DNA of 64,000 nt. Source: Cyanobacteria bacterium UBA6446 (GTDB lineage: Bacteria > Cyanobacteriota > Vampirovibrionia > Gastranaerophilales > Gastranaerophilaceae). The stretch is taken from assembly GCA_002438405.1 (NCBI GenBank), contig DJOE01000004.1, positions 4,492 through 68,491 on the forward strand, in the 5' to 3' direction. Below the pieces are notes generated by a model. The model saw only the letters and a list, made by a program, of their open reading frames with translations, had not been told where the DNA came from and searched no databases. Of this stretch, positions 4,362 through 59,198 are shown one piece after another. A program made the position numbers and the translations under genes. Within the stretch, counting starts at the first letter, position 1. Each line of letters starts with the position of its first letter.

Positions 4362-4434
4362 GCGCTTGTAGCTCAGCAGGTAGAGCACTCCCCTTTTAAG
4401 GGATAGGTCACGCGTTCGAATCGCGTCAAGCGCA
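4362..4434 (+). tRNA. tRNA-Lys (anticodon UUU)
   Basis: Folded by hand into a cloverleaf: acceptor GCGCTTG/CAAGCGC, D arm GCTC..GAGC, anticodon loop CTTTTAA, T arm ACGCG-TTCGAAT-CGCGT, discriminator A. CCA is not encoded. Confidence 0.9.
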
Positions 4435-4735: not shown

Positions 4736-5004
4736 TCGTGTTATGGATTGTTACGTCACTCTCCTTATAATGCCTCGCATAAAACGTGCCTCCGAGCCTG
4801 CCGACTAGTCCTGCAGACAGCCAATCGATTCGGCAGGCTACTCCGCACTCCGCTCGGCTTACACAATGACATGACTTTTTTACATGTCATTACGAGGAAA
4901 CAAGCCGAGCAAATTTTAGAGCAGTCTATACGGAGTGACGTAGTAATCTTGAACACTGAATAAAGACATTACCCACCCTAGCGCTCAGCCATAAATGGGC
5001 GAGG
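4736..5004. repeat. GC-rich composite inverted-repeat element (copy A of a mosaic repeat family)
   Basis: It has imperfect 24-nt terminal inverted repeats (4738-4761 vs 4933-4956, 19/24). An 89-nt module (4772-4860) is 82/89 identical to 59075-59163. An 80-nt module (4882-4961) is 74/80 identical to the reverse complement of 57601-57680. The 'ccataaatgggcgagg' tail is shared with 57715-57732. Confidence 0.7.
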
Positions 5005-57890: not shown

Positions 57891-59018
57891 TTATTTCCCA
57901 ACACAAATACCATAAGTCCCACCCATTACTGTACTCTTAATATTATCCAGTTCCTCATCGTCATATACAACTTTTGCCATAAAAGGCTTAGAACCTTTTG
58001 TAGATGACCAATACATCAATTGAGGAATATCTAAATTCTCTTTTTTAGCTTTTGAGAGTATAGATTTTAAAGTCGCAGCATCTGGCATGGACATATCAAG
58101 TCCATCACAGGCTTTTTTTGCTCCAGCCCACTTATTCGGAGATCCAGTAAAAAAAGATGGCAGTGTTGACCAACCTGGATCATATTTTTCAATATCAGGG
58201 TCATCTAATGTTAGACCATCAAATGATGGTAAAACATATACACAACCAATACCAGAAACCTCAACACCTGCACAACCTTTACTGAATTTTGCTACTTTAA
58301 AACTTCTTATATCATATTGTTTACCATTACGTGCTTCGCTATTTGGACCTTTAAACCCATTCACGTCCATTACAAAGTCAATTGGCGCAGTTACACTTGT
58401 TGTGTATGCAAATTTCTTAGTTCTACCAAAACCAATTGGTAAATCTGCAAAGCTTGGGGTTACTGTATCACCATCACCTATTATTCCTGCATTTGGATTG
58501 TAAGTCATAATTAGTGTTGCACCATCAGCTAAAATTATACCAACATTATCACTTTTGTTGTCTTTTAAATTTAGGTTCTTTCCTGTTTTTGCTTTTGATA
58601 CGTCATAGGTTTCACCATCTGTTGTGGTTACTGTTTTTGTCGGCCAACAATCTGCAATATGCGCTGCATCACATCGTGTACTTATTTTTATATATTTTGA
58701 AAATTCATCTACAAATTCATCTGTACTTGCATAAGTTCTTTCTAGTCCTCCATCTGCTCTCATTAAATCCATGGATTTTGTAATCTTTTGAGCTAAGTTT
58801 GCTTGTGCTTCTGAATTACTACGTTCTGCAATATTTTTTAGCAATGTTGGCATTGTTAGTGCTGCTACCACTCCAATTACTCCGAGGGTGATTAGAACTT
58901 CGGCAAGGGTGAAAGCAAATTTTTTATTCGGAGTTACACCGCTGAAAACCTCTCTACAAGCGGGTTTTAGATTACCCCCCCCCCCCTTGAAAACCGTTCT
59001 ATGACTGCGTTTTGACAT
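57891..59018 (-). CDS. type IV pilin-like protein with a large C-terminal domain (DUF1566/Lcl-like end)
   Basis: 'KFAFTLAEVLITLGVIGVVAALTMPTL' is the prepilin signal plus helix. The ATG at 59018 has an AGGAAG RBS 8 nt upstream. The C-terminus 'KWAGAKKACDGLDMSMPDAATLKSIL....LMYWSST....F.AKVVY.......K....GGTYGICV' resembles the DUF1566 pattern. Confidence 0.75.
   Translation of the reverse strand: MSKRSHRTVFKGGGGNLKPACREVFSGVTPNKKFAFTLAEVLITLGVIGVVAALTMPTLLKNIAERSNSEAQANLAQKITKSMDLMRADGGLERTYASTDEFVDEFSKYIKISTRCDAAHIADCWPTKTVTTTDGETYDVSKAKTGKNLNLKDNKSDNVGIILADGATLIMTYNPNAGIIGDGDTVTPSFADLPIGFGRTKKFAYTTSVTAPIDFVMDVNGFKGPNSEARNGKQYDIRSFKVAKFSKGCAGVEVSGIGCVYVLPSFDGLTLDDPDIEKYDPGWSTLPSFFTGSPNKWAGAKKACDGLDMSMPDAATLKSILSKAKKENLDIPQLMYWSSTKGSKPFMAKVVYDDEELDNIKSTVMGGTYGICVGK
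58975..58986 (-). repeat. G12 homopolymer (C12 on the plus strand) within the pilin-like ORF leader
   Basis: Direct count: 'attaCCCCCC CCCCCCttga'. On the coding strand it encodes K-G-G-G-G-N at codons 11-16. Confidence 0.95.
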
Positions 59019-59074
59019 TTTTCATGCTTCCTTTCTTTTGTTATGCTTAACACACTGACTTTTGTGTTTACTGC

Positions 59075-59163
59075 GCCTCGCATTAAACGTGTCTCCGAGC
59101 CTGCCGACTAGTCCTGCAGACAGCCTATCATTTCGGCAGGCTGCTCCGCACTCTGCTCGGCTT
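59075..59163. repeat. 89-nt GC-rich nested-hairpin module (copy C), in the predicted 5' leader of the pilin-like gene
   Basis: 82/89 identical to 4772-4860. It contains the nested inverted repeats CCGAGC...GCTCGG and GCCTGCCGA...TCGGCAGGC. Confidence 0.8.
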
Positions 59164-59169
59164 GTTTTT

Positions 59170-59198
59170 ATTATACAAGATTTTTTGAACATGCGCAA
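59170..59198 (-). promoter_or_regulatory. sigma70-like promoter upstream of the pilin-like gene
   Basis: Minus strand: TTGCGC, 17-nt spacer, TATAAT. The predicted start site falls at the edge of the 89-nt module, about 145 nt before the ATG. Confidence 0.4.

Follow-up and report, generated by a model that had tools for sequence, protein, structure and literature searches.

We analysed a 64,000-nt stretch of the genome of Cyanobacteria bacterium UBA6446, a member of the Gastranaerophilaceae (contig DJOE01000004.1, positions 4,492 to 68,491 of the forward strand; the whole stretch is called the window), and found that a GC-rich hairpin module present in it twice belongs to a dispersed repeat family with a conserved fold. 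The family combines three features in an unusual way: the stems turn over fully in sequence under strict pairing, two unpaired strands are invariant, and the module has a home in duplicated T arms of tRNA genes of 14 specificities. One window copy (copy A) lies in the leader of a pilin-like gene, and the closest relative sampled has no module at this site. We somewhat favour the interpretation that the module is a non-autonomous, hairpin-forming insertion element whose folded strand, mainly its invariant loops, is read by a factor acting in trans, with the tRNA T loop as its natural home and the window copies as solo insertions.

Fold and covariation of the module

The initial annotation, made from the window's letters, had placed two 89-nt copies at 59075–59163 and 4772–4860 with 82 of 89 positions identical, and this was borne out, both copies lying on the + strand. 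The family was collected with two covariance models: R1 was built from five copies of the UBA6446 genome (G000; 2.02 Mb in 24 contigs, ~32% G+C) with a hand-drawn structure, and R2 from 77 diverse members. The two window copies were matched as follows.

59070–59166, match on the + strand, 'sense' taken as − (the pilin mRNA strand): module copy A, models R1 and R2 (G000:C15:63561-63657)
4767–4863, same orientation as copy A: module copy B, models R1 and R2 (C15:9258-9354)

The seven substitutions between them fall at 59084, 59092, 59126, 59130, 59131, 59143 and 59154. Both are GC-rich, as had been stated, with 53/89 G+C in copy A and 55/89 in copy B compared to 36% in the 1-kb flanks, but the value of 55/89 had been assigned to copy A. 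The suggestion that the copies sit in opposite orientation relative to transcription turned out to be weak, as both are on the + strand and the nearest protein-coding genes of both are on the − strand.

Across the family the module is 57–125 nt long. On the + strand the order is P1, (C)TCGCRTTAAACG, P2, NCTNCG, the P3 hairpin, CYYCG, P2′, CTCTGCTCG and P1′, giving an architecture in which P1 is followed by a core bubble, P2, a small loop and P3. The core consists of a GCA/TGC helix between a 2×2 loop (TC/TC) and a 6×2 loop (TTAAAC/TC). The stems are free in sequence with pairing kept, and measure 3–8 bp (P1), 3–4 bp (P2) and 4–15 bp (P3). In copy A the elements are:

59078–59089, + strand: invariant 5′ loop strand TCGCATTAAACG, kept in nearly all of ~115 distinct members at ~100 loci
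59151–59159, + strand: invariant 3′ loop strand CTCTGCTCG, with almost no variation across the family
59075–59077, + strand: P1 5′ strand GCC, pairing with GGC at 59159–59161
59089–59092, + strand: P2 5′ strand GTG(T), pairing with GCAC at 59148–59151; variants GTG/CAC, GGG/CCC, GAA/TTC and GGC/GCC
59097–59144, + strand: P3 hairpin, 59097–59107 with 59133–59144, G59143 bulged, tip 59108–59132; sequence and length vary

The 3-bp core helix, formed in copy A by GCA 59080–82 and TGC 59154–56, was G-C in 74/74 and C-G in 74/74 sequences at its first two pairs, and A-U or G-U (52 and 22) at the third. All ten modelled pairs of P3 were changed on both sides, exemplified by CTGA/TCAG in the copy on contig C10 of G000 versus CCGA/TCGG in others, as were all three modelled pairs of P1, which elsewhere reaches 6–8 bp with wholly different sequences (GACACAC/GTGTGTC, GGTTGC/GCAATCC, GACTTGT/ACAAGTC, CCTGC/GCAGG). 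In an alignment of 41 distinct sequences (A4), 94.9% of cells held a standard pair against 67% after shuffling, with 206 both-side changes against 56 expected; for 74 distinct sequences (A5) the values were 93.5% against 65% and 360 against 108. When partners were slid by 1–3 columns, pairing fell to 29–50%. Both alignments were fitted to the covariance model, which inflates these figures somewhat, and the raw sequences show the same pattern. The initial annotation had counted an absence of covariation against a structured element; P1, P2 and P3 all varied with pairing kept in both alignments. The annotation had also described two nested inverted repeats, and both are present, but in relatives compensatory change backs only the inner one (GCCTGCCGA/TCGGCAGGC), which is P3. 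Relatives do not retain the outer CCGAGC/GCTCGG pairing (for example, CTACGC...GCTCGG), which overlaps the two conserved unpaired strands.

Within G000 we found three coexisting subfamilies that differ in P1 and P3 and have identical loops, and this points to a factor within this genome that reads the loops in trans. Two structural candidates were discarded. RNAalifold on a MAFFT alignment returned a meaningless structure, as the bulge shifts the register, and the hand structure with covariance-model-guided alignments was used instead. An outer helix P0 (GGG...CCC) paired no better than shuffled partners and proved to be a copy of tRNA T-stem and acceptor.

The question of which strand is sense was approached along three lines, and these agree on the reverse complement of the window + strand, which carries CGAGCAGAG...CGUUUAAUGCGA. 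This strand has purine-rich loops including tandem GA/GA, and its predicted fold is the more stable one in 104 of 108 members (mean difference 6.3 kcal/mol); it runs in the same direction as flanking genes at a ratio of ~65:36; and of the 31 copies near a tRNA gene described below, 26 have it on the sense strand of the tRNA, among them all 24 in the canonical arrangement. For copy A it is the pilin mRNA strand. A further test, of G-U against A-C pairs, gave 98:22 in the raw count, which stems from two loop-adjacent columns, and an uninformative 26:19 without them.

Spread of the family and insertion in a pilin leader

G000 contains six close copies, the number that R1 recovers, and two 3′ fragments. 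The broader model R2 added four more diverged copies, bringing the count to ten, and the family thus has at least ten copies in this genome. Two of the copies lie less than 500 nt from contig ends, where a repeat that interrupts assembly would be expected. Searching 100 related genomes at the BLAST level recovered the module from only 3, in copies with evident compensating changes. R1 matched 71 of 151 Gastranaerophilaceae genomes, and R2 matched 122 of the 151, representing 55 of 60 genera, with copy numbers per genome from 0 to at least 30. The search for further copies that the initial annotation had proposed revealed a dispersed repeat across most of the family. High-quality genomes with zero copies exist, such as G108 (same genus, 99% complete), and the count in G138, also of the same genus, is at least 27, with near-identical copies on both strands. 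Sampling across the phylum gave matches in 35 of 50 genomes of the module's own family and one weak match among ~100 genomes of 28 other families. An exact-pattern scan anchored on the 3′ loop strand CTCTGCTCG was run over one genome per species (185,579 species); all 80 matches listed, of at least 120 stretches, were Gastranaerophilales, Melainabacteria or gut and rumen metagenome-assembled genomes. The module family is specific to Gastranaerophilaceae.

Thirteen IMG/VR viral contigs carry the module, and copies also occur in prophage; one such copy sits at the end of a DNA-methyltransferase-like open reading frame (ORF), beside an ORF resembling the Mu F-type phage head protein (both recognised by eye, with no profile check). 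The settings of intergenic copies, co-directional, convergent and divergent, stood at 44:21:21, which is the random expectation, and this is what the proposed comparison with neighbouring genes yielded. Copies form head-to-tail tandem arrays with 0–2 nt between units and are nested in other repeats, for example in a G138 composite. The only recurrent neighbours were pilin-like genes, a response regulator and genes that by eye (no profile check) look like Mu-type A and B, the Mu-like ones probably representing one orthologous prophage site. At L109, L116, L128 and about six other loci, a GGTTGC-type copy lies directly upstream of a Mu B-like ORF and beside a Mu A-like ORF (by eye, no profile check) and ends within ~15 nt of the Shine–Dalgarno sequence of the former; these copies are probably one orthologous insertion in a prophage family. 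The G138 composite is ~330 bp long (L046–L065), with at least 20 near-identical copies, inverted ends CATGTCATTGYGAGG / CCTCGTAATGACATG, an inner GCGACGTAACAATCCC...GGGATTACTACGTCAC hairpin and the module nested inside. Pieces of this composite also flank copy B in the window, at 4737–4770 and 4866–4950.

The family has no counterpart in Rfam 15: the only window matches were tRNAs, the two copies gave nothing credible at E≤10 (hammerhead, twister, pistol, hatchet, HEARO and tRNA-like families included), and ten tRNA-linked loci gave nothing other than tRNAs at E≤1. We found no literature on such elements in Melainabacteria. One product of the analysis is a covariance model of this repeat, which interrupts assemblies and fills out intergenic regions in most Gastranaerophilaceae genomes.

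The two sites in the window were then compared with those in G159, the closest relative sampled, whose flanking genes are 90–92% identical and which has no module at either site. At the site of copy A, G159 carries TTGAAA-17-TATAAT followed by an uninterrupted leader of ~50 nt, with the contiguous sequence ...TATAATAGATATACAAG|TCAAAG.... Compared with it, copy A amounts to ~100 extra bases that directly follow the −10 box, and both junctions show CAAG-like microhomology. At the site of copy B, G159 has a different composite repeat, without the module. Copy A is an insertion in the pilin leader and did not evolve as its regulator. Attempts to obtain more pairs of filled and empty sites were made, and synteny was broken at the other G000 copies and G032 was too diverged from G082.

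The pilin-like locus comprises two further features.

57891–59018, − strand: pilin-like gene with the prepilin-type FTLAEVLITLG motif, from the ORF list; the module is in its 5′ untranslated region
59170–59198, − strand: putative pilin promoter TTGCGC-17-TATAAT, read from the sequence; the module starts ~7 nt past the −10 box

Of the promoter that the initial annotation had proposed here, both boxes exist (TATAAT at 59170–59175, TTGCGC at 59193–59198), but the −35 box has 3/6 consensus bases and a consensus scanner makes no call. Copy A lies between this −10 box and the ribosome-binding site of the pilin-like gene, a position that would suit a dedicated cis-regulatory leader, riboswitch-like or attenuator, as the annotation had also suggested. 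The pilin mRNA should now begin with a stable stem-loop of ~90 nt, and the leader reading holds in this trivial sense only. As a dedicated regulator the module is effectively excluded: the orthologous leader in G159 is without it, copies occur in every intergenic type and both orientations, and only 2 of the 6 close copies in G000 adjoin any of its 70 pilin-like genes, on which count an association with pilin-like genes was rejected. Neither the orientation and neighbour statistics nor the G159 leader showed the constant position and orientation upstream of one gene class that mark a riboswitch, and a tempting false call of 'riboswitch or leader RNA' is thereby removed from the annotation. The stem-loop may nevertheless affect stability or translation of the pilin mRNA as a side effect and not as a dedicated switch. 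With an insertion between promoter and ribosome-binding site of an apparently phase-variable, adhesin-type gene, the locus offers a simple test of the effect of a repeat on expression.

Two further observations concern this gene. A run of 12 C/G at 58975–58986, at the 5′ end of the ORF, had 11, 12, 13 or 14 G and in one case G11AG across strain contigs, with the surrounding 700 bases otherwise near-identical apart from one contig with a single base change and another with an N-gapped duplication; judged from these sequences, the variation fits slipped-strand phase variation. In addition, ~70 ORFs of at least 120 amino acids in G000 bear the prepilin FTL(A/P)EVL motif, and they are the sole large multi-copy protein families of the genome.

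The tRNA T-loop arrangement

Among 119 copies examined (107 loci), 31 were within 600 nt of a tRNA gene, and 24, about a fifth of the total, lay 69–115 nt downstream of a complete tRNA gene in a single fixed orientation, where chance would place well under 1% of copies. The linked tRNAs have 14 specificities (Gln, Arg, Leu, Glu, Lys, Tyr, Met, Ala, Ser, Val, His, Asp, Thr and Gly). Copies linked to a tRNA make up 13 of the 29 best-scoring copies per genome (L017–L045), indicating that they are over-represented among the best-kept members. This link to tRNA T loops is new in this analysis.

On the tRNA sense strand the unit is ordered as the tRNA, a terminator-like hairpin, S-AYGAGAAC-s′, a small hairpin, s*-GTTCGAG, the module, AAGAC and a copy of the tRNA 3′ end. 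The last comprises AAT, the 3′ strand of the T stem and the 3′ strand of the acceptor as far as the discriminator base, and CCA follows in some units only. On one side the module adjoins the 5′ strand of the T stem of that same tRNA, with TTCGA; on the other it adjoins the sequence from the T loop to the discriminator base. These adjacent segments match the local tRNA even where its T loop is odd, as with TTTG in a tRNA-Gly and TTCA in tRNA-Leu and tRNA-Glu. The module thus interrupts a copy of the T arm of the local tRNA, at about position 58/59. At no fewer than nine loci the repeat ended exactly at the last base of the tRNA, with unrelated sequence beyond. Furthermore, the displaced copy had CCA and the working gene lacked it in three loci, and the reverse held in one. 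CCA is encoded in ~16 of 39 tRNA genes of G000 (noted with the window gene at 4362–4434), and this mixed state made the contrast informative. At a tRNA-Asp locus (L157), the displaced copy and its downstream terminator were 98% identical over 54 nt to the native G000 tRNA-Asp end; a unit of ~187 bp was thus inserted in the T loop, bringing a replacement 3′ end and terminator, and the native end was displaced.

Tandem units were found at one tRNA (L029), and at L148 a gene-bearing island of 4.2 kb lies between tRNA-Leu and its module-bearing repeat; reading its translations by eye, with no profile search run, we recognised no ORF as a recombinase. The platform was never seen with an intact T loop. 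Collectively, the signature of a tRNA-integrating element, a direct repeat of the 3′ part of a tRNA with the native end displaced, was found for the tRNA-linked relatives only. The two window copies are solo modules at non-tRNA sites; copy B is 340 nt from a tRNA-Lys, outside the canonical arrangement, and G000 has no tRNA-linked unit of this kind. A hammerhead-like reading of the GAUGA-stem-GAG junction upstream of the tRNA-linked copies was tried and failed at C3, U4 and A14, with no Rfam match.

Several other features at tRNA genes were observed. At L102 in another genome (~2127, 4255 and 5323, − strand), the platform AYGAGAAC...GTTCGRG is followed by a different hairpin module (CGGATTTT...), and the T-loop position seems to accept several repeat families. 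About 45 nt past the native tRNA-Asp terminator on G000:C5, outside the window, there is a further partial T-arm copy (GCGAGTTCGAACCT). A similar, older copy at L157 is followed by a module of another type, and such scars seem to build up in the 3′ flanks of tRNA genes. G000 also has, again outside the window, two classical genomic islands of ~16 kb and ~15 kb (C5:198887 and C5:406269), bounded by 41-nt and 45-nt repeats of tRNA-Gly(GCC) and tRNA-Met that start in the anticodon loop and extend to the 3′ terminus, without the module.

Candidate mechanisms and known systems

In the insertion-element interpretation that we favour, the module would spread as a discrete unit through a trans-acting enzyme that recognises a single strand in its folded form, above all by the loop strands TCGCRTTAAACG and CTCTGCTCG, with stems that need only pair. 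The best-kept copies lie in the T loop of a tRNA T arm, where the module forms the far end of a ~180-bp unit; in the one case tested (L157), this unit supplies the tRNA with another 3′ end and terminator and shifts the native 3′ end downstream. Copy A entered between the −10 box and the ribosome-binding site of the pilin-like gene, which is possibly phase-variable. Of the two readings offered by the initial annotation, a regulatory leader and a DNA-level element resembling repetitive extragenic palindromes (REP) or miniature inverted-repeat transposable elements (MITE), the latter is better supported by the dispersed repeat, the random spread over intergenic settings, the prophage, viral and nested copies and the sites that lack the module in G159. 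The strong covariation with invariant loops and the link to tRNA T loops indicate more than a plain REP.

Several observations weigh against a mobile element of this kind. Copy A had the same sequence in 8/8 strain contigs spanning its site (two further contigs end within the copy) and copy B in all five contigs reaching its site, and in all strain contigs that reach copy A, copy B or, in another species, the L157 tRNA-Asp unit, we saw no polymorphism for presence within a species, indicating that movement is rare or old. Only one clean pair of filled and empty sites was obtained, with ends and target duplication not defined to the base. The burst in G138 moved the ~330-bp composite with its own terminal inverted repeats, not demonstrably the module alone, and invariant loops with free stems are equally expected of a functional RNA. 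No obvious mover appeared either. Y1 (PF01797) had no match in G000, G138, G082 or the closed genome G139 and one in G074; IS110 (PF01548) had none in these five genomes; and TnpB (PF07282) gave a single match, in G139, below the Pfam cut-off, with positive controls for all three. G000 has no multi-copy transposase ORF, its multi-copy proteins being pilin-like.

The search was extended in other directions. Y2 (PF04986) was absent from the matches in the same five genomes, although the control genomes gave none either. Among 184 occurrences of the 5′ motif there was no ORF-bearing autonomous version with the two loop motifs far apart, and no recurrent recombinase was found near 153 loci; the units are ~180 bp and hold no ORF. 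Y1, Y2 (whose control genomes gave no match), TnpB and IS110 were set aside as movers for want of a convincing match in the high-copy genomes. The hairpin- and guide-using transposase families searched did not turn up convincingly in the genomes tested, and a mover, if found, could be a new DNA- or RNA-handling activity. A more specific proposal, which we advance tentatively and with clearly less confidence, is that the module is the recognition core of undescribed gene-less elements that enter tRNA T loops or T-arm copies and replace the 3′ end and terminator, moved by an enzyme or RNA-guided system unrelated to the Y1 and Y2 HUH, TnpB and IS110 families; the window copies would then be off-target insertions of the core.

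The same loops and stems could also belong to a functional structured RNA, with the reverse complement of the + strand as sense, that serves as a protein-binding scaffold, a guide-RNA-like scaffold with the 3′ flank as guide, or an unrecognised ribozyme. Its copy number would reflect an RNA that is itself useful or is carried by a selfish RNA-guided system, and tRNA-linked copies would be co-transcribed with the tRNAs. We consider this rather unlikely. It would account well for invariant loop strands among covarying stems, for the purine-rich strand with the more stable predicted fold and for the agreement of that strand with flanking genes and tRNAs, and the scaffold is followed by 16–19 nt identical to the neighbouring target in a layout like that of TnpB ωRNA (by analogy only). 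However, no Rfam family matched even at the permissive threshold, the five genomes offered no IS110 partner and no TnpB above cut-off, and a terminator hairpin separates tRNA and unit in most tRNA-linked loci shown (for example, L018–L028, L030, L104 and L157). No promoter moves along with the element, one copy in three lies antisense to its neighbours, the balance of G-U and A-C pairs picks no strand once the two loop-adjacent columns are dropped, and copy number ranges from none, as in the nearly complete G108, to 30 or more.

A less probable alternative, which overlaps with the insertion-element interpretation, takes the module as a recombination site, used as a folded strand, of small integrative elements without genes whose target is the tRNA T loop, comparable to integron attC or the attP hairpin of CTX phage. 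The extruded hairpin would join its flanks (T-stem 5′ strand and TTCGA; AAT and T-stem 3′ strand) into a T-arm-like core for a host or phage recombinase, with solo copies at secondary sites. This would explain why the canonical tRNA-linked copies shown in detail split the T-arm copy where they do, and repeats that end precisely at the tRNA terminus are the classical signature of tRNA integration; the displaced native end at L157, the tandem accretion, the island at tRNA-Leu and the ability of the same platform to hold a different hairpin module point the same way. The arms of a sequence-specific recombinase, however, are normally double-stranded and conserved, whereas the module has variable helices and keeps the sequence of its unpaired strands. 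None of the copies was linked to an integrase, site-specific integration would hardly reach 14 tRNA targets each with the cognate 3′ end, and the classical islands of G000 itself use anticodon-loop sites without the module.

We also compared the module with described systems. Like REP and the composite BIME elements, and like the REPIN–RAYT system, it is a short GC-rich extragenic palindrome in many copies, with clusters or arrays, copy number that varies among relatives and a fold kept by compensation. Unlike REP and REPIN, its arms are not inverted copies, the conserved TCGCRTTAAACG and CTCTGCTCG are asymmetric, unpaired and not complementary, the units run head-to-tail instead of alternating, and the Y1 gene of REPIN–RAYT systems is missing from all but one (G074) of the five genomes. 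With integron attC and the folded CTX attP it shares conservation of structure over stem sequence, a terminal part of variable length, insertion as a unit and asymmetric unpaired features that could mark the strand. It differs from attC in having no R″/R′ boxes (RYYYAAC...GTTRRRY) and no cassettes, its flanks being ordinary chromosomal genes (no intI search was made), and in carrying its conserved sequence in loops rather than at helix ends. Rickettsia palindromic elements, ERIC, Correia and BOX are likewise lineage-specific hairpin repeats of ~100 nt in untranslated regions and sometimes gene ends, which can change either end of an mRNA and for which no mobilising enzyme is known; against these, loop invariance with full stem turnover over ~55 genera is unusual, and none of them is known to occupy, as a rule, the T loop of a duplicated tRNA 3′ end.

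Integrative elements that target tRNA genes by means of tyrosine integrases, of which Williams reportedly gave a classification in 2002, show the same direct repeat from the T loop to the exact tRNA 3′ end, a replacement 3′ end, displacement of the native end and tandem accretion, but the module units are ~180 bp, gene-less and spread over 14 specificities, and their core T arm is interrupted by a hairpin module. The palindrome-associated elements of IS200/IS605 (PATEs), the ωRNAs of TnpB and IscB and the bridge RNAs of IS110 are similar in that they are non-autonomous hairpins beside a short motif, without classical inverted ends, in which a scaffold abuts target-derived sequence. The module is far shorter than known ωRNA and bridge RNA scaffolds and matches neither HEARO nor any other Rfam family; G000, G138, G082 and G139 lack Y1 and IS110, and the one TnpB match, in G139, is below cut-off. 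In bridge RNAs the loops are variable (programmable) and the stems conserved, the reverse of what is seen here. As for IS91, ISCR and Helitron-like elements, a CTTG motif adjoins P1 of the module, and PF04986 is absent from the matches in five genomes with controls likewise negative. Set beside a classical MITE, the unit is wholly hairpin, with P1 in the place of variable terminal inverted repeats and CAAG-like microhomology at both junctions of the one pair of filled and empty sites.

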